Shown: positions 2,968 to 56,211 of the stretch, piece after piece
Layout of the letters: each line of letters starts with the position of its first letter
How positions within the stretch are numbered: position 1 is the first letter of the stretch
Assembly: GCA_016186715.1 (NCBI GenBank)
Contig: JACPLA010000021.1
Location: 640 to 64,639 of the forward strand
Source: Ignavibacteriales bacterium
GTDB lineage: Bacteria; Bacteroidota; Ignavibacteria; UBA10030
Length of the DNA: 64,000 nt
Direction: 5' to 3'
Notes under the pieces: model-generated
Seen by the model: only the letters and a program-made list of their open reading frames with translations
Told to the model about the DNA's origin: nothing
Databases searched by the model: none
Program-made: the position numbers and the translations under genes

Positions 2968-3033
2968 GAAAACAAAGAGGCGAACGACCCACCTACTAGC
3001 CGTTCGCCCATTGCAATAGCCAAACACACCATC

Positions 3034-3444
3034 CTACTTTGTGAGAGCCATCTTCATTACCTTTGTGAATTGCTTTCCGCTCTGACCCGTCGCAACGATG
3101 CGATAGAAGTACACACCGCTTCCCACCTTGCCTCCAGCGGCGTCTGTCGCATTCCATGTCAGTCTCTGGTAGCCGGCAGAATACTCCCGCTCGACAAGTC
3201 TGACAATTTCACGACCCAAAACGTCGAGGACCGTGACACTCACGAATGACGGCTCGGGGAGCGCAAACGAAATCTGCGTTTCAGGATTGAAGGGATTGGG
3301 AAAATTCTGACTTACTTGAACCTCCTTCGGAATTACAATAACTATTTCCTCATCAGCATGTCTTTCCACGGGTTCACCCTCTACAAACGCGACGTTGCTG
3401 TACGCAGAGACCAAACATCGTGGCCGAATCTCTACGCTGGCCAT
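3034..3444 (-). pseudogene. remnant of a T9SS-secreted protein: C-terminal sorting domain only
   Basis: 136-aa ORF consisting almost entirely of a Por/T9SS C-terminal domain (NFPNPFNPETQISFALPEPSFVSVTVLDVLGREI...YFYRIVATG). No functional passenger domain remains. Confidence 0.5.
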
Positions 3445-16586: not shown

Positions 16587-17122
16587 TCACACAGAATAGA
16601 AGCTTCTATCCAGACTACTGTATTGAATGGCTTCGCTCAAATGCTCAGTCCTGATCTGATCACTTCCCACAAGGTCGGCAATGGTGCGTGAGACTTTCAA
16701 AATTCGGTCATAAGCCCTCGCCGAGAGGCCCAGCCGATTCATCGCCGTTTTCAGCAACTCTGCCCCCGCCGTATCGATCTGACAGAATTCCTTGATTTCC
16801 TTCGATTCCATGTCGGCGTTGCAATACAGGTCTTTTCGTTTTTCGAATCTGCCAGTTTGAACCCCCTCGCACGAACAACACGCTCACGTATGGCCGAGGA
16901 ATTCTCGCCCGAGCGCTTCGAGGAAAGCTCCGTGTATTTGACAGCAGGGACCTCGACGTGAATATCGATTCTGTCCAGCAATGGACCTGAAATCTTGCCA
17001 ACGTATTTCTGGATTTGCATCGGAGTGCACATGCATTCCTGATTCGGGTTTCCGTAATTGCCGCACGGACAGGGGTTCATTGCCTTTTTGCCATATTCGA
17101 CTTTCAGCGCCAAAACCATCAA
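16587..17122 (-). pseudogene. comM: comM/yifB (Mg-chelatase-like ATPase) C-terminal remnant, 5'-truncated and frameshifted
   Basis: Frames encode [46 protein letters not shown] and ...LSARAYDRILKVSRTIADLVGSDQIRTEHLSEAIQYSSLDR. The AAA+ N-terminal two-thirds is absent. Homology ends exactly where the HTH-paralog leader begins, near 17080. Confidence 0.75.
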
Positions 17123-17505
17123 AACTGCCTACTGTTCTGAACACTATCGGGGATCACATCAGAAAGCGACGGCTTGAGCTTGGACTTCTCCAGCGTGAGG
17201 TTGCAGACCGTCTCTCTGTCAAAGTCGACACCATTCTCAACTGGGAACACAACAGAACGGCACCAACGCTCCGATGCCTTCCAGGGGTGATCGCGTTCCT
17301 CGGTTACGATCCATCGGATGACAACCCAAGAACACTGGGCGAAAAGCTGATGAAATATGGGAAAAGTTGTGGCATGAGTCAAAAAGAAATGGCGAGCCGG
17401 ATTGGTATTGACGCAACAACGTTGAGCAGGTTGGAGAGAGATAAGGGCAGATGCTTTGATACGGTACTCAAGAAAGTTCATGACTTCTTGAACACGCATG
17501 AGTAA
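16981..17505 (+). CDS. tandem-HTH XRE-family regulator, paralog B
   Basis: Shares the leader (ttgcctttttgccatattcgactttcagcgccaaaaccatcaaaactgcctactgttctgaac) and the protein core with paralog A. The real start is probably downstream of 17100. Confidence 0.65.
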
Positions 17506-22035: not shown

Positions 22036-22956
22036 TCACATTTTCATCCATCCTGATCGACAATGCTTCGCTGGAAACAGATCAGGGTGAAATACCTCAG
22101 CAAGTATTTCCAGAGAGTCTACTAATCTTGGGCCGGGGCGATTGAAATAGTGACTCCCTTCACCGATATACACCTCATGCTCTCGCACTGCCTTGAGTGC
22201 ATTCCATCCGCGTTTCTTTTCCAAAAAGGGCATATCCTTTAATGACCGCTGAATTGAAAATCCGCAGGGTGCAATGAGGATCTTATCCGGATCCTGTAGG
22301 ATGAGGTCCTCAAAACCGATCCAGCGCTTACCGTCATCAAGAAAGACATTCGAACCGCCAGCCATCTCTATCAATGGTATCATCCAGTGTCCTGCGACCA
22401 TAATCGGTTCGATCCATTCGATATGTGCGACCCGAGGGTGATGGGAGCATTCTTTTGTCTTGGACTGCACATCTTCAAATGATGTCTTCATCTTGCTGAC
22501 TACTTCGTTGCCTTTTCGTTGAACATCGAGATGACCTGAGACAAGCACAATGTTTTCCAATACCTGTTCCAGGCTCTTTGGATTCAAGTCTATGACAGTA
22601 ATATTGTCTTGGTGAAGACATTCATTGAGTGCCTCTCTCAATTCATCTGTGCTCACAGCACAGACCGCACATTGTGACTGCGTAATAATGTGCGTCGGTT
22701 CGAGTGCCCTGATCCTTTCCACATTGACCCTGTAGATTGATAGAGCCTCCCGCAGTATTACGCTCACTTCCCTGCTGATCTCAGGACTCGTTCCGCTTGA
22801 CCGGTACTTCGGCTGGCTGCAAACAGGAAGCTGCTCAATACCAGGAGGATAATCGCATTCATGCGAACGCCCGACAAGCCGATCCTTCAAGCCGAGCGAA
22901 CAAACAATTTCTGTTGCGCTGGGTAGCAACGAGATGATGCGCTGTTGTGGCGCCAA
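22036..22956 (-). CDS. BtuF/TroA-like (class III) substrate-binding-fold protein without a signal peptide
   Basis: IISLLPSATEIVCSLGL...GRSHEC matches BtuF-type cobalamin/siderophore binding proteins. Only 15 nt separate the start from the upstream gene, which leaves no room for a leader peptide. Confidence 0.65.
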   Translation of the reverse strand: MAPQQRIISLLPSATEIVCSLGLKDRLVGRSHECDYPPGIEQLPVCSQPKYRSSGTSPEISREVSVILREALSIYRVNVERIRALEPTHIITQSQCAVCAVSTDELREALNECLHQDNITVIDLNPKSLEQVLENIVLVSGHLDVQRKGNEVVSKMKTSFEDVQSKTKECSHHPRVAHIEWIEPIMVAGHWMIPLIEMAGGSNVFLDDGKRWIGFEDLILQDPDKILIAPCGFSIQRSLKDMPFLEKKRGWNALKAVREHEVYIGEGSHYFNRPGPRLVDSLEILAEVFHPDLFPAKHCRSGWMKM

Positions 22957-22971
22957 GGCCCGTTTCCTGAC

Positions 22972-23511
22972 TTAGATCCGGGATTCCGCCAAGGCCGGAA
23001 TTTTATGTTGTGCGAACTCAAATGAGCCGAAGAGCAGGCCGGAGTAGAAAAGAGCGCTCAACACAGTATTGCTAAAGAATGGTATCGCTGCGATGTAACA
23101 TTGAGCTAGTCCTGTCATGTTCATCGGATACAAGTGTCCTCCAGCCCATACCGCGAAATTCGTTATGATAAAGAATACGATTGAACCAGCCACCGAGGCG
23201 GCAATAATGTTGACGATTTTCAGACGATGCCGTAAGAGAAATCCCATCGTTGTCATCAAAGAGAAACATCCATAAATCACCAAACGCATCGCCGTGAAAA
23301 ACTCGTAGCCCTTAAGAAAGGCCAAACCAATATCGCTTAACACCATCGCAGCAAGGGGAACAACGTAGGCTGTTCTCCTGTCGGTAAAATAAGATCCTCC
23401 GAATAAGGCAAGAGCAATCATCGGCGTAAAGTTTGGGGGGTGTGGAATGAGTCGTGAAGCTACGGCCGCCAGCACCATTGAGATTAGGACCGTAATGCGG
23501 CTCTTAAGCAT
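22972..23511 (-). CDS. small polytopic membrane protein, possibly an ECF-type S-component
   Basis: 179 aa with 5 to 6 hydrophobic helices. It has a good RBS (aaaggagtaatcttATG) and is the first gene of the minus-strand operon. Confidence 0.45.
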   Translation of the reverse strand: MLKSRITVLISMVLAAVASRLIPHPPNFTPMIALALFGGSYFTDRRTAYVVPLAAMVLSDIGLAFLKGYEFFTAMRLVIYGCFSLMTTMGFLLRHRLKIVNIIAASVAGSIVFFIITNFAVWAGGHLYPMNMTGLAQCYIAAIPFFSNTVLSALFYSGLLFGSFEFAQHKIPALAESRI

Positions 23512-23641: not shown

Positions 23642-24240
23642 TTCAAGAAGTCAAGAAAAAGAAATATTCTCACTCGGGCGAACACCTTCCCTCGAAGGTT
23701 TCAAGCTGCTACGACTTGGCAGGTCTCCTGGCTTTCTCGATCCTTGATCGTCTTCCCATCCCGACTGTTGTCGGCACAGTGACGTTCGTGATCAAAGAGG
23801 AAATCTCACATTGGGTGAGTCGAGATCACAGTTGCGGGGCAGCTTCCGAATGTATCACGGAATTCCCTTTTCATCCCGGGCATTGCTTGCCGGGACACCA
23901 AATCATTCCATGTGAAAGAACGGTAATTCTTCGTCGCACGCCTATGTACAAAGATTCTCGACAAATGTCAAGAGATTGCAAGAGGGACAACCAAGATGGT
24001 GATGAACGGTCAGCAAGACCTCTTCTCGATGAGTGGTAGGGTACAAGCAATCAAGGGTCCCTAGTCTTTCTCACTTCGTGGACGAAATCCAAAGCGGGCT
24101 TTTTCAAAAGGCTCAAGACTGCATTTTCATACGTCGCGGTCCCTTTGCAGAACTACCCGAGTTATTTCAGGGGCCTTTTGGGAAACCATGCATGATATAG
24201 CATTCTCTCTTCAGGTTCTCAGCGGCGTTAACCAACAGGG

Positions 24241-24774
24241 TTGCGTTGCCAGAGTACGGGTCGGGTCGTCCTTACGGCCAAACGGCCAAAATCATCAGAA
24301 TTCCTTAAATCGCTCATTTCTCTGGGTGATCACATCAGAGCAAGGCGGCTTGAATTGAAGTTTTTGCAGAAGGACGTGGCTCGGGTTATTGGAGTCGATG
24401 AGACGACTGTCTACAATTGGGAGCGGGGGTATACAAGTCCGACGCTTAGGTATGTGCCGAGGATTCTGGATTTCCTGGGTTATGATCCGGCTCCCGCGGA
24501 GCCGAGGACGCTGGGAGAGAAATTGCTGAAGTATCGGAAGGACCGCGGGATAACTCAGAAGGAGCTTGCCCGGCGCATTGGGATTGACCCAACGACGCTG
24601 AGCAGGTTGGAGAGGACCAGCAGCAAGCGGGTTTTCCGAAGTGTTTTGCTGAAGGTTGAGGACTCTCTTCGCAAATGCTTCTGTGCGATCCTCGAGATCA
24701 TACTGTTTGCCCATAGAGCCCCCCTTTGGGAAGCACGAAATATCAAATCCGAAATACGAAACAAAAACAGATAA
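24241..24774 (+). CDS. tandem-HTH XRE-family regulator, paralog C; its 3' end reads through into unrelated sequence
   Basis: The core [47 protein letters not shown] is identical to paralog A at protein level and almost identical at DNA level. The C-terminal approximately 40 aa are not HTH-like. Confidence 0.65.
   Translation: MRCQSTGRVVLTAKRPKSSEFLKSLISLGDHIRARRLELKFLQKDVARVIGVDETTVYNWERGYTSPTLRYVPRILDFLGYDPAPAEPRTLGEKLLKYRKDRGITQKELARRIGIDPTTLSRLERTSSKRVFRSVLLKVEDSLRKCFCAILEIILFAHRAPLWEARNIKSEIRNKNR
24655..24714 (-). pseudogene. 20-codon stub of a four-helix-bundle (23S-IVS/Avd-like) protein gene
   Basis: MGKQYDLEDRTEAFAKRVLN compares with MKYDLEERLTNFAVRII of the intact copy at 41575. Nucleotide identity is high (ta[c/t]gatctcgagga). 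Confidence 0.35.
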
Positions 24775-25072
24775 TGACAGAAATTCAAAACGCTTTATGC
24801 CCGTTTTGAACCTTTGGACATTTTGTCATTGCTCTTTGTTTGAGATTTCGTGCCTGCACGCCGAAGTGAATGTGATTTCCAAAAGAATGGCGAAATGTTT
24901 CGGCACGCAGGCGTGCTTGTGATTTCGGATTTCAACGTTAGACTGTATAGAAGTTCCTATCCAAGCTCCTGACTGGATCGCCCCGCTCAGACGCTTCTGG
25001 CCATGCAAGGGATTCCATCCCTTCCATAGCAGTTCCCCAGAGAGGGATGGAATCCTCCCTAAGCACCAAATC

Positions 25073-38822: not shown

Positions 38823-41357
38823 ATGAGCGTTGTATCATACCACCGTGAGAGGTTTATGGAAGGTAACTTTTCGAATCGGGTTCAAGATGTCATCCGTCTT
38901 AGCCGGGAGGAGGCGCTCCGGCTGGGTCATGATTACATCGGAACCGAACACCTGCTTCTCGGGATCATCCGGGAGGGGGAAGGAATTGCGGTCAAGATTC
39001 TCCGAAACCTTGGAGTCGACCTGTACAAGCTGAAAAAAGCCATCGAAGACACGGTTCGGACTTCGGGAGGAACGCTGACCATCGGCAATATTCCGCTTAC
39101 CAAACAGGCGGAAAAAGTCCTCAAGATTACATATCTGGAAGCCAAACTCTATAAGTCGGACGTCATTGGGACCGAACATCTGCTTCTCTCGCTCCTTCGC
39201 GATGACGATAACATCGCGGCCCAGATCCTGCACCAGTTCAACGTACATTACGATGTGGTAAGGAACGAACTGGACAATATCATTTCCGGAAAGCCATCCA
39301 CCCCTCCGACCCAGCATGCACCTGAGAAAAAGCCCGAAAAATCGAAAACACCCGTGCTGGACAATTTTGGAAGGGACCTTACAAAGCTTGCTCTGGAAGA
39401 CAAGCTTGATCCGATTGTCGGCCGCGAAAAGGAAATTGAGCGAGTGGCCCAAGTCCTGAGCCGCCGCAAGAAGAATAACCCCGTGCTCATCGGCGAACCT
39501 GGTGTCGGGAAGTCCGCGATCGCCGAGGGGCTGGCTCTGCGGATTGTGCTGAAAAAGGTCTCAAGGGTCCTTCACGAAAAGCGGGTCGTTACCCTGGATC
39601 TCGCGGCGCTGGTCGCAGGCACGAAGTACCGGGGCCAGTTTGAAGAGCGAATGAAAGCCGTGATGAACGAGCTTGAGAAGGCAAAGGATGTTATTCTGTT
39701 CATCGACGAACTTCATACCATTGTCGGTGCGGGAGGCGCAAGCGGATCACTGGATGCGTCAAACATGTTCAAGCCCGCCCTTGCCCGTGGCGAGCTCCAG
39801 TGCATCGGCGCCACGACGTTGGACGAATACCGCCAATACATCGAAAAAGACGGCGCACTGGACCGTCGATTCCAGAAAATCATGGTCGACCCGACGACGG
39901 TCGAGGAAACCATCCAGATTCTCCAGAATATCAAATCAAAGTACGAAGAGCACCACGGCGTCCGTTTTACCGAAGAAGCCGTCGATGCGGCGGTTCGGCT
40001 CAGCGACCGGTATATCACGGATCGCTACCTCCCCGATAAGGCCATCGATGTCATGGATGAAGCAGGATCGAGGGTTCACCTTGCGAATATCGTCGTCCCA
40101 AAGGAAATCCTCCACCTCGAAGAAGAGATCGAAAAGATCAAACAGTCTAAAAATCAGGTGGTAAAGAATCAGAATTTTGAGGAAGCGGCCCGCCTGCGCG
40201 ACCTGGAAAAGAAACTGCTGAGCGACCTCGACATTGCCAAACGTGAGTGGGAGCTCAAGGCACAGGACACGATTTACGAGGTTGACGAAGAAGACTGCGC
40301 GGCCGTGGTTGCCATGATGACCGGCATCCCGGTGCAAAAAGTGGCTCAGAGCGAATCGGAAAAACTGCTGAAGATGCAGGATGCGTTGAAAACAAGCATT
40401 GTCGGACAGGATGAGGCGATTGAGAAACTGACCAAGGCGATCCGCCGTACCCGCGCCGGTCTCAAAGATCCAAAACGGCCCATCGGCTCCTTCATTTTCC
40501 TTGGTCCGACGGGCGTCGGAAAAACCGAGTTGGCCAAGTCGCTCGCCCGGTATCTCTTCGACTCGGAAGAGGCCTTGATCCGGATCGACATGAGCGAGTA
40601 CATGGAGAAATTCTCCGTTTCGCGTCTTGTTGGAGCTCCCCCGGGATATGTCGGATACGAAGAAGGCGGCCAGCTGACGGAGAAAGTACGCCGGAAACCG
40701 TATTCTGTGGTGCTTCTCGACGAGATCGAAAAGGCCCATCCGGATGTGTTCAATATTCTGCTCCAGGTACTTGATGACGGTATCCTGACGGACAGCCTCG
40801 GCCGGCGGGTCGATTTCAAGAATACGATTCTCATCATGACGTCCAACATTGGCTCACGTGATATCAAATACGGAGCCACGTTCGGATTCGGTCAGCAGAG
40901 CCAAAAGGACAAATACCAGACGATGAAGGGGAATATTGAAGACGCCCTCAAGCGGGTCTTCAATCCTGAATTCCTGAATCGGGTCGATGAAACCATCGTC
41001 TTCCACAATCTCGGGCGTGAAGACATCCTCACAATCATCGATATCGCTGCCAAGGATCTTATTGACCGCATGACCTCGATGGAAATCACGATCGAATTGA
41101 CAAAAGCGGCGAAAGAATTCCTGGCCGATAAGGGATTCGATCCCTCCTTTGGCGCCCGCCCGCTGCGTCGAGCCGTGCAGAAATATGTTGAGGATCCCCT
41201 TGCGGAAGAGATTCTGAAAGGGAATTTTTCAGCCGGCAGCAAAGTGAAGGTAAAGTTCAACAAGAAGGCGGAAGAGCTGAAGTTCATCGATTCCAGCAAA
41301 GACAAAGGCGGAGACGAGCTGAAGGAACAAGATGAAGAAGTCGTGGACGTGACGTAG
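38823..41357 (+). CDS. clpC: ATP-dependent Clp protease ATP-binding subunit ClpC
   Basis: Clp_N repeats, two AAA+ modules and a short UVR-like linker, 844 aa. Confidence 0.9.
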
Positions 41358-41383
41358 ACGCCGGTCTTGCATCCAAGAACCAA

Positions 41384-41418
41384 GCACCCCCGGGAGACCG
41401 GGGGTTTTTTGTTTTTCC
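41384..41418 (+). terminator. rho-independent terminator after clpC
   Basis: cccccgggagaccggggg followed by ttttttgttttt. Confidence 0.75.
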
Positions 41419-41436
41419 CAAGCACCTGCCATCCAC

Positions 41437-41532
41437 TTCATCATTCTACATTCAGCGTTCTGCATTCGATATTGTTTTTTGTTTGTGAAACAAGCAATAT
41501 CGAATATCGAATGCTGAATATTGAATGTAGAA
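41437..41532. repeat. approximately 95-bp imperfect palindromic element, copy L
   Basis: Left arm cattctacattcagcgttctgcattcgatattg. The right arm is its reverse complement with small insertions. Confidence 0.6.
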
Positions 41533-41574
41533 GGGAGGGAAAATCTACCTCTCTTGACATTCTATGGGGGAATC

Positions 41575-41931
41575 ATGAAGTACGATCTCGAGGAACGGCT
41601 CACGAATTTCGCGGTAAGGATTATCGATATTGTCGAATCGCTCCCGCGGACAAGAACCGGTAACTATCTGGCCGGACAACTGATTCGATCCGGCACCTCC
41701 CCTGCACTGAACTACGGGGAAGCCCAAGGTGCGGAATCTCGGCAGGATTTTATCCACAAAATGAAGATCATCGTCAAAGAATTGCGGGAAACCCGGATCA
41801 ATCTGACCATTATCCATCGGAAGAAACTCTCCCGCAGCCAAAACGCTTTCCCAGAGATCGCCGACGAATGTCGGCAGCTGATTTCAATCTTCGTCAAGAG
41901 TATCAAGACGGCGGAGTCAAGAAAAAGATAA
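41575..41931 (+). CDS. four-helix-bundle protein (23S rRNA intervening-sequence protein family, Avd-like)
   Basis: MKYDLEERLTNFAVRIIDIVESLP...GNYLAGQLIRSGTSPALNYGEAQGAESRQDFIHKMKI is the canonical family signature. Confidence 0.8.
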   Translation: MKYDLEERLTNFAVRIIDIVESLPRTRTGNYLAGQLIRSGTSPALNYGEAQGAESRQDFIHKMKIIVKELRETRINLTIIHRKKLSRSQNAFPEIADECRQLISIFVKSIKTAESRKR

Positions 41932-41976
41932 TAGGAGCGAGGACCCAGGCCGAAAAGTTGGGCACCGGCTATAACT

Positions 41977-42063
41977 TCAACATTCTACATTCAGCGTTCT
42001 GCATTCGATATTGTTTTTGTTGTGAAAGAAGCAATATCGAATGTTGAATGGAGAACGTAGATG
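41977..42063. repeat. palindromic element, copy R, more degraded on its right arm
   Basis: The left arm is 33/33 identical to copy L. Confidence 0.6.
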
Positions 42064-42069
42064 GGAGGC

Positions 42070-42110
42070 GAAAAAAAAATCCCCCAGCTGCAGCCGGGGG
42101 ATCGTTTTTG
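42070..42110. terminator. bidirectional rho-independent terminator (A9-cccccagctgcagccggggg-T5)
   Basis: A GC stem flanked by an A-run and a T-run. It serves cspA on the minus strand and the 4HB gene on the plus strand. Confidence 0.7.
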
Positions 42111-42126
42111 CTTCAGAGACTTTTCG

Positions 42127-42327
42127 TCAGACTTTCACGACTTTGGCCGCCTGAAGTCCTTTGGGTCCCTGCTGCACCTCGAATTCGACGGTGTCGCCTT
42201 CTTCGAGGGTCTTGTAGCCTTCACCCACGATGGCTTTGAAGTGGACGAACACATCTTCGCCGCTTGCCCGTTTGATGAAGCCGTACCCTTTCGCAGCGTT
42301 GAACCACTTGACGCTTCCGCGTTCCAT
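42127..42327 (-). CDS. cspA: cold-shock protein (CSD)
   Basis: [30 protein letters not shown]... The upstream 38 codons of the ORF are not part of the gene. Confidence 0.85.
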
Positions 42328-42551
42328 ACGGAACACTCCTTGAAGAGGTTTTACATGATGTACAGCCTGCTGGCCATGAACAGATGCTGTCAAAACCCTT
42401 CCAAGGACTGCAACCATCCCCGCACGGAGCGCATCGGACAAAGGACAACAACAGTGTACAGTGAACTACAGGCGCCAATCTACTGTTTTCCTGTTTGAAA
42501 AACAAGAGCCATCCGGCTTGGAAGGTAAGACGCTGTGCTTCACCTCCCCTC

Positions 42552-55910: not shown

Positions 55911-56211
55911 TTCCCTAGACAACAACATTGTAGAGTCCGGTCCGCGACCGGACACGAAGGCTTGTGAGGTCCGATTACGAATCGGACTCTACAAGGCGTC
56001 GGATTTGAGCCAAAGGCTCATTCCCGCCAGCCTAAGTCCGGGCCTGATGGAGGCGGGCTGGCGCCTCTGGCGAATATCCGATGCCGTGCCTCCGGCACAG
56101 CCGCGCTTTGGAACTCCGTGCTTCGCCTTCCGATGCTCCCAAAGGAACAAAAGCAAAGGCCATGCTGATCGCTCAAGATGGCCTTTTGTACACGATAGTT
56201 TCTGAAAACCG

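Follow-up and report, generated by a model that had tools for sequence, protein, structure and literature searches.

Intervening sequences (IVSs) in the 23S rRNA genes of Leptospira and Coxiella burnetii carry an open reading frame (ORF) of the PF05635 family in the loop of a long stem that is formed by terminal inverted repeats (TIRs). In the Coxiella IVS, RNase III cuts a stem whose loop contains the S23p ORF, and tandem heptameric repeats (GACAGAT) occur just before its ATG (PMC4990558). The distribution of 23S IVSs is sporadic, which suggests horizontal spread (PMC4990558). Both ORF-bearing IVSs and the multicopy nature of the family are already known, and the function of S23p and the spread of the 23S IVSs have been questions for about 30 years. 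Here, we analysed a 64-kb stretch of DNA from an Ignavibacteriales bacterium (contig JACPLA010000021.1 of assembly GCA_016186715.1, hereafter the window), in which a gene for a four-helix-bundle (4HB) protein of this family lies between two palindromes in the spacer between clpC (38823–41357, plus strand) and cspA (42127–42330, minus strand), both assigned with Pfam. Like the 23S IVSs, this cassette has a PF05635 ORF that can be placed in the loop of a long stem of TIRs, and it shares with them a sporadic distribution and, with that of Coxiella, tandem heptamers beside the start codon (PMC4990558). Unlike them, it occupies an intergenic spacer between two terminators and is not inserted in a 23S rRNA gene (at helix 25 or 45). 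Rfam searches revealed no rRNA in the window and no rRNA context among 20 related loci. On balance, we favour the reading that the unit is a small mobile cassette akin to the IVSs with ORFs in 23S rRNA genes, but residing in an intergenic spacer.

Comparison with genomes whose ClpC is 93–94% identical to that of the window shows that the cassette was inserted. The gene order UppS–ClpC–CspA is kept in these relatives (L085, L086–L088, L196 and L198), with BamA upstream in all except L088. The clpC–cspA spacer measures 770 nt in the window, versus 130 nt in L085, 200 nt in L086–L088, 78 nt in L196 and about 75 nt in L198. The relatives' spacers hold terminators only, with neither a hairpin nor a 4HB gene, and the one in L196 carries a single bidirectional terminator. 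Nucleotide alignments of the relatives to the window break at 41341–41360 and restart at 42078–42127 (at 42078 for L085). Synteny stops at about 41350–41360, near the intrinsic terminator of clpC (41386–41411, plus strand), which is host DNA and forms the left limit of the insertion; the intrinsic terminator of cspA (42103–42078, minus strand) is the host DNA that limits it on the right. Both terminators were located by a terminator scan where the original prediction had placed them, with that of clpC called at 41386–41405. One assembly, GCA_040901865.1, contains both an empty clpC–cspA site (L196) and a cassette elsewhere (L001), with a protein that is 77% identical to that of the window. The L001 cassette has an unannotated 250-aa ORF, itself downstream of a carboxyl-transferase, on one side and a sigma-54 regulator on the other. 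The four closest cassettes (L001–L004, with proteins 71–79% identical) are found in four unrelated neighbourhoods with the same kind of flanks, and the similarity between cassettes spans from about 41430–41435 to about 42056–42057, the outer edges of the palindromes. As this similarity starts and stops at those edges, the palindromes form the ends of the inserted unit. These comparisons show that, once this lineage had split from relatives with 93–94% identical ClpC, some 630 bp (roughly 41435–42070) became inserted in the interval that is limited by the clpC and cspA terminators. The self-contained insert that had been predicted is thus borne out by empty sites, by cassettes in unrelated neighbourhoods and by similarity that is limited to the palindrome edges; the locus is not conserved in relatives, and palindromes of this type occur at other loci.

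All parts of the unit are described here on the plus strand. The outer left arm (41435–41480) consists of ACTTC followed by five TTCnnnn heptads that run to TTCGATATTG and a T-run, and it pairs locally with 41489–41533. The inner left arm (41495–41533) starts with AATATCGAA, continues with nnnnGAA heptads and contains ATATCGAA twice; by the polarity that is found throughout the family, it is the canonical upstream end. The leader (41534–41574) bears a purine-rich, Shine-Dalgarno-like GGGGGAA at 41566–41572, and is followed by the 4HB gene (41575–41931), whose stop codon is separated from the right arm by a trailer of 42 nt (41932–41973). The inner right arm (41974–42016), which again consists of ACTTC and five TTCnnnn heptads to TTCGATATTG, is the canonical downstream end. 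It is complementary to 41495–41533, and pairing of the two would loop out the gene. The outer right arm and tail (42029–42073) comprise nnnnGAA heptads at 42029–42061 and the 12-nt GGGAGGCGAAAA, a repeat of the start of the leader that, together with the outer right arm, makes a terminal redundancy. Unlike the 23S IVSs, the window copy thus has extra outer arms: each end also bears the partner arm of a neighbouring unit, which results in two local palindromes. With its outer arms and the 12-nt leader repeat, we infer, the copy looks like a full unit to which about 0.2 of its neighbour is attached, as would be expected if it had been taken from a tandem or circular form.

The two palindromes that were predicted to flank the gene are present, at 41435–41533 and 41974–42073, and their similarity is somewhat more extensive than described. 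The arms of the left palindrome (41436–41480 and 41489–41533) are 45 nt long and 78% complementary, and those of the right palindrome lie at 41984–42016 and 42029–42061. The palindromes are direct repeats of each other, with a 98% match between 41435–41479 and 41974–42018 and a looser similarity up to 41543 and 42073. They do share an identical arm as predicted, but the identical stretch measures 38 nt (41442–41479 and 41981–42018) instead of 33 nt. A 31-nt pattern for the arm has exactly two matches in the 64 kb, versus 0 expected. Each palindrome can form a long hairpin as RNA, with folding energies of −48.6 kcal/mol (left, z = −9.2) and −42.1 kcal/mol (right, z = −8.1) that were equalled in 0 of 200 shuffles. 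Rfam yielded no family at the gathering score at these hairpins, only sub-threshold look-alikes of miRNA precursors.

Such stable stems could also be mere RNA-level devices (RNase III sites, stabilisers or terminators, for example) that serve a resident gene, at a locus that is not mobile. Two further observations fit this explanation: the T-run that follows many of the hairpins that occur without a gene (see below) is terminator-like, and the upstream hairpins of the family fold slightly better as the sense strand (28 versus 13). However, clpC and cspA have terminators of their own, the orientation of the gene-less hairpins is not biased with respect to the adjacent ORFs, and a resident, non-mobile gene is contradicted by the empty sites in relatives, one of which has a related cassette elsewhere in its assembly. 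We therefore regard this explanation as very improbable. A gene with a pair of similar imperfect palindromes around it, 88–98 nt long and in direct orientation, also brings to mind a gene cassette of the integron type, with the palindromes as attC sites (clusters of attC sites lacking integron integrases, CALIN). The outer ends, ACTTCAT... and ...GTAGAAG, lack the core pair RYYYAAC (R'') / GTTRRRY (R'), the arms are heptad arrays instead of having the R''-L''/L'-R' layout, and the architecture of the family is a gene-enclosing stem, all of which make an integron origin extremely unlikely.

Next, we focused on the ends themselves. The left arm reads ACTTC ATCA TTC TACA TTC AGCG TTC TGCA TTC GATA TTG, and its partner arm reads CAATATC GAATATC GAATGCT GAATATT GAATGTA GAAG. 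A pattern of four TTC heptads (at most one mismatch) has 14 matches in the window versus 0.85 expected, all of them at the cassette or beside a putative 4HB gene stub at about 24740, bar one isolated one-mismatch match at 2541–2564. The motif ATATCGAA or its complement occurs six times in the window, five of which are in the cassette, and the inner arms carry it in canonical polarity. The arms are 75–82% alike between the window and the L001–L004 cassettes, whose synonymous sites are saturated (see below). As the arms are this similar although synonymous sites are saturated, the cassette ends are under sequence constraint, and the end motif, ATATCGAA before the gene and TTCGATAT after it, is likewise conserved.

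To place these ends in the context of the family, we scanned one genome per species for homologues, which were found at 54–70% identity, and analysed 83 homologous loci. They come from at least ten phyla, including Bacteroidota, Planctomycetota, Verrucomicrobiota, Desulfobacterota, Nitrospirota, Armatimonadota, Fibrobacterota and Marinimicrobia. A strict heptad tract, defined as at least four heptads with a common invariant trinucleotide, is found within 300 nt of the gene in 59 of the 83 loci, with a density of 1.95 per kb near the gene versus 0.097 per kb far from it (20-fold). Tracts of 4, 5 and 6 heptads number 37, 68 and 22 in the flanks of these genes, with a local peak at 5. In 41 of the 83 loci, the motif ATATCGAA or its complement TTCGATAT is found no more than 330 nt from the gene (19-fold enriched), with a clear polarity: it is in sense upstream in 28 versus 9 cases and in antisense downstream in 23 versus 9. 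Likewise, purine-rich arrays are favoured upstream (32 versus 11). The unit is bounded by five-heptad arrays in inverted orientation, with nnnnGAA before the gene and TTCnnnn after it, and their outer motif, ATATCGAA / TTCGATAT, is conserved.

In 47 of 80 loci, the flank before the gene is complementary to the flank after it above the 95th percentile of mismatched controls, and local palindromes are significant in just 9 upstream and 15 downstream flanks. The commonest architecture of the family is thus flank-to-flank complementarity and not two local palindromes, and as the two flanks are complementary, they form a long stem with the gene in its loop. In several loci (L011, L013, L034, L052 and L081), the arms reach right up to the start and stop codons, as exemplified by L034 with AATATCGAATATCGAACAAGGAATAATGA-ATG...TCATAA-TTCGAAATTCCTTGTTCGATATTCGATATT. 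The CAAGGAA in arms of the L034 type could act as a ribosome-binding site, which the stem would sequester. In L081, host flanks AACCGCAG and CTGCGGTT (at about 2440–2500 and 2851–2900) prolong the stem past the ends of the element, so that this element looks as if it was inserted in the tip of a pre-existing hairpin, like IVSs in rRNA helices. The five-heptad arms with their conserved end motif and the gene-enclosing stem throughout the family, as well as the abundance of gene-less copies described below, go beyond the original prediction.

Heptad flanks are also found around distant members of the family in Cyanobacteria and Chloroflexota (33–40% identity). A plasmid of Nostoc flagelliforme has (TTCAAAA)4 upstream and (TTTTGAA)4 downstream of the gene, and a plasmid of Ca. 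Chlorohelix has (ATGAnnn)5 and (TTCATnn)4 at these positions. In plasmid pPg_04 of Pseudanabaena galeata (L201 193–391), five different heptads make up a 35-nt unit, of which 5.7 repeats with 96% matches directly precede the ATG of the 4HB gene. The Pseudanabaena gene adjoins cas1; PF05635 genes have been noted near cas genes (PMC3936711). The gene on the Ca. Chlorohelix allophototropha plasmid (L200 1183–1548) lies between helicase-related and N-6 DNA methylase genes, apparently inside a restriction or defence operon.

The gene that is carried by the cassette was predicted to be a 119-codon member of TIGR02436. It encodes 118 aa plus a stop codon, and scores 78.8 bits against TIGR02436 (cut-off 24, E 3e-22) and 44.1 bits against PF05635 (cut-off 33.8). 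An exact-sequence look-up of the 118-aa protein returned no record. Comparison of the window gene with those of L001–L004 gave a pS of 0.64–0.93, which is saturated, a pN of 0.12–0.19 and a dN/dS of at most 0.11. With a pI of 10.0, the product is a basic 4HB protein, and the dN/dS shows that the cassette gene is under strong purifying selection. This sets it apart from the Coxiella IVS, in which the ORF is decaying, whereas the cassette ORF is intact. An AlphaFold2 (AF2) model of the monomer (pLDDT 94) has four helices, and its best Foldseek matches are 2RLD (TM-score 0.79–0.86) and 2GSC (0.82), followed by the accessory variability determinant Avd (4DWL) and entries of ribonucleoproteins (RNPs) of diversity-generating retroelements (DGRs). 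The fold that had been proposed, common to Avd and the ORFs of 23S IVSs, is thus recovered. The entries 2RLD, 2GSC and 4DWL have five chains each as deposited, and Xanthomonas S23p is a homopentamer (PMC4990558).

Avd of Bordetella phage BPP-1 resembles the cassette protein in its 4HB fold, its small size, its basic character and its membership of a family with pentameric solved members, and it acts on structured RNA together with a reverse transcriptase (RT; PMC10053308). The cassette gene could therefore be an orphan avd of a DGR whose RT and repeats lie elsewhere. The shared fold (4DWL and the 8UB* entries) speaks for this, as does the finding that PF05635 is common in DGR neighbourhoods (PMC10053308). 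However, sequence identity is 12–14% to Avd versus 30–32% to 2RLD, no relatives and no hint of phage carriage were found in a scan of IMG/VR with protein alignment, and the gene is solitary in all neighbourhoods examined. A search for DGR components, which the original prediction had proposed, revealed no pair of repeats like the template and variable repeats (TR/VR) of a DGR in the 64 kb and no RT in the neighbour tables of L001–L004; the ORFs of the window were not all scanned for RT. We consider the DGR explanation highly unlikely. A set of 300-nt repeats that was found belongs to paralogous helix-turn-helix (HTH) genes, and its mismatches are not confined to adenines (29 of 63 are at A).

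Hairpins with such arms also abound without a 4HB gene. We scanned metagenomes with the pattern TTCN4TTCN4TTCGATATTGTTTT, which matched 105 stretches, for which 80 loci were returned. A 4HB gene is present within 150 nt in 5 of the 80 loci and is not in range in the other 75. The gene-less loci are mostly intergenic. Their hairpins share heptad words and ACTTC(N4TTC)4GATATTG arms with the gene-bearing elements, and many, though not all, fold as AATATCGAA(N4GAA)4-loop-ACTTC(N4TTC)4GATATTGTTTT; 37 of 72 unique sites fold below −25 kcal/mol. Two topologies occur, in which the outer end is either ATATCGAA or ACTTC. Tracts typically start with ACTTC, and exactly five heptads are found in 36 of 69 metagenomic arms and six in 2, where the search pattern required three. 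Like miniature inverted-repeat transposable elements (MITEs), the hairpins at these 75 loci are short, contain no ORF, are multicopy and have their ends in common with a gene-bearing element. In a set of loci from metagenome Ga0315912 (L096, L107, L112, L121, L127, L128 and L158), long arrays of GGTTATT, GTTAGCT and GGGTTCT adjoin the TTC tract; these mixed heptad arrays have no 4HB gene nearby and resemble the short tandem heptamer repeats of Cyanobacteria.

Several loci contain partial or multiple units. In L004 (3742–3872), the hairpin, the ribosome-binding site and the first four codons are duplicated upstream, before the next hairpin, and in L030 (about 3010–3060) a 16-codon stub of a second 4HB gene lies past the downstream hairpin. 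L004 and L030 point to internal deletion as the origin of gene-less forms and to a tandem arrangement of units. L072 contains two complete 4HB genes in tandem (175–550 and 1047–1422).

The large number of gene-less hairpins raises the question of whether the 4HB gene is merely a passenger. According to this explanation, the heptad palindromes are similar to MITEs or repetitive extragenic palindromes (REPs) and are moved by an unlinked enzyme, such as a transposase of the HUH type, as in REP-associated tyrosine transposases (RAYTs), or of the DDE type. The gene would then lie between two palindromes by chance or be carried as a composite, and the function of the protein would be unrelated to the hairpins. 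Besides the 75 of 80 metagenomic loci, this is supported by the 4HB protein, which has no known catalytic motif and for which PADLOC and PHROGs gave nothing useful, and by Geobacter metallireducens, in which eight gene-less pairs of five tandem heptanucleotides are known (PMC2700814). There are also similarities between the cassette and MITE/autonomous pairs or REP-RAYT systems, in that short gene-less palindromes have the ends of a longer gene-bearing copy and in that the gene is flanked by repeats on which it may act. However, the cassette protein is not a known transposase or HUH protein, and the ends are five-heptad arrays instead of a single TIR or REP. Moreover, in at least ten phyla the gene is accompanied by heptad ends, whose polarity is fixed and whose arms often touch the start and stop codons, and heptad flanks are also present around the distant members in Cyanobacteria and Chloroflexota. 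No transposase is found beside the loci with gene tables (L001–L004), and the heptad tracts in the window are confined to 4HB sites, bar the isolated match mentioned above. We thus consider a passenger role for the gene unlikely, although less so than the explanations discussed before. Elements of the IS200/IS605 type (palindrome-associated transposable elements, PATEs) and REP/RAYT come with a gene for a Y1 HUH transposase and were rejected as candidates for the unit, as the 4HB gene is its sole gene and the L001–L004 neighbour tables contain no transposase; a copy elsewhere in the genome is possible.

For a mobile cassette of the IVS kind, which we favour, the heptad arrays would be putative recognition sites of the element's own protein. 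We propose that the protein recognises the ends because the 4HB gene is the only one that travels with conserved heptad ends across phyla, and such recognition would explain why the end sequences are conserved across these phyla. Judging from the pentameric solved relatives, each subunit may recognise one heptad, which would give 35 nt per pentamer. In the transcript, the arms may pair into a long duplex that would mask the ribosome-binding site and, like the stem of IVS RNA, would be a substrate of RNase III. The catalytic step of movement is probably performed by a host or unlinked enzyme; we leave room for the latter because gene-less copies are abundant and a catalytic motif is absent. The gene-less hairpins might then relate to the cassette as MITEs do to an autonomous element.

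A number of observations weigh against this interpretation. The 75 metagenomic loci without a 4HB gene in range mean that the hairpins may spread alone, and no recognisable catalytic domain was found in the 4HB protein. The covariation of the gene-less hairpins is weak: by ungapped pairing, a fraction of 0.70 is paired between a hairpin's own arms versus 0.61 between arms of different hairpins. This test is low in power because the arms draw on few heptad words and can pair in several registers, and much of the arm pairing may follow from the common heptad vocabulary. Some arrays are much longer than five heptads, such as the 13 heptads in L030. Of 78 hairpins, 46 fold better as the sense strand, which is a weak difference (46 versus 32, p = 0.09), so that the structure may act as RNA or as DNA. 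A scan for promoters of the sigma-70 type found none at the cassette. The nearest empty site is too diverged to define a target-site duplication or the exact ends, and the source is a metagenome-assembled genome.

The 7-nt period of the cassette ends recalls other repeats that are intergenic and multicopy. The 'class 3' sites of Geobacter metallireducens are inverted pairs of five tandem heptanucleotides with the consensus MTYCTGA (PMC2700814), and thus have exactly five units, and TAACTGA repeats are found in Beggiatoaceae, Cyanobacteria and Bacteroidetes (PMC4679880). Both studies propose binding sites of regulators and do not make a link to PF05635 (PMC2700814, PMC4679880). In the full-text literature, we found no description of heptad-array ends outside rRNA, of a five-heptad module or of a link to gene-less hairpins. 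The locus and its relatives place the gene of the 23S IVSs outside rRNA, in an insertion that can be demonstrated and whose ends have a precise, conserved make-up of five heptads with ATATCGAA / TTCGATAT. They also offer a possible origin for the multicopy heptamer repeats of Geobacter, Cyanobacteria, Beggiatoaceae and Bacteroidota, and a rule by which such cassettes and their gene-less derivatives can be annotated. A more far-reaching and rather doubtful possibility is that PF05635 pentamers bind five-heptad (35-nt) nucleic-acid modules in a sequence-specific manner and, together with these, make up very widespread minimal mobile elements with a single gene of about 120 codons, from which 23S IVSs, many orphan heptamer repeats and the Avd of DGRs would be offshoots.

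Elsewhere in the window, the region 24676–24932 (minus strand) is, judging by its sequence, probably the remnant of a second element. It contains ATTTCnn heptads (24730–24760) inside a compound hairpin (about 24745–24932), and a G-rich tract that resembles a Shine-Dalgarno sequence, after which an ATG opens a run of about 12 codons, MGKQYDLEDRTEA (24714–24676). A 20-codon stub of a 4HB gene had been predicted here at 24655–24714. About 12 of these codons are suggestive, given that they lie directly downstream of the only other heptad tract in the window. The remainder is antisense to the conserved C-terminus of an HTH gene, paralog C, as this gene is homologous to its two paralogs up to about 24686. 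When the window is searched with the hidden Markov model (HMM) of the family, the stub has an E of 2.8, which by itself lacks significance, and it has no NCBIfam or Pfam match. Where the heptad-hairpin remnant abuts paralog C, the stop codon of the latter is lost and the frame extends by about 30 codons.

The three paralogous double-HTH (Xre-type) genes lie at 2545–2947, 17086–17447 and 24241–24690, and paralogs A and B have a common upstream segment of 107 nt. Besides those described above, the window has just one long inverted repeat (55928–55994), with 26-nt arms that are 81% complementary and 15 nt apart and with no heptad structure. A cobalamin riboswitch (RF00174, 91.4 bits) is located at 23701–23917 on the minus strand, upstream of two minus-strand ORFs (22036–23511).

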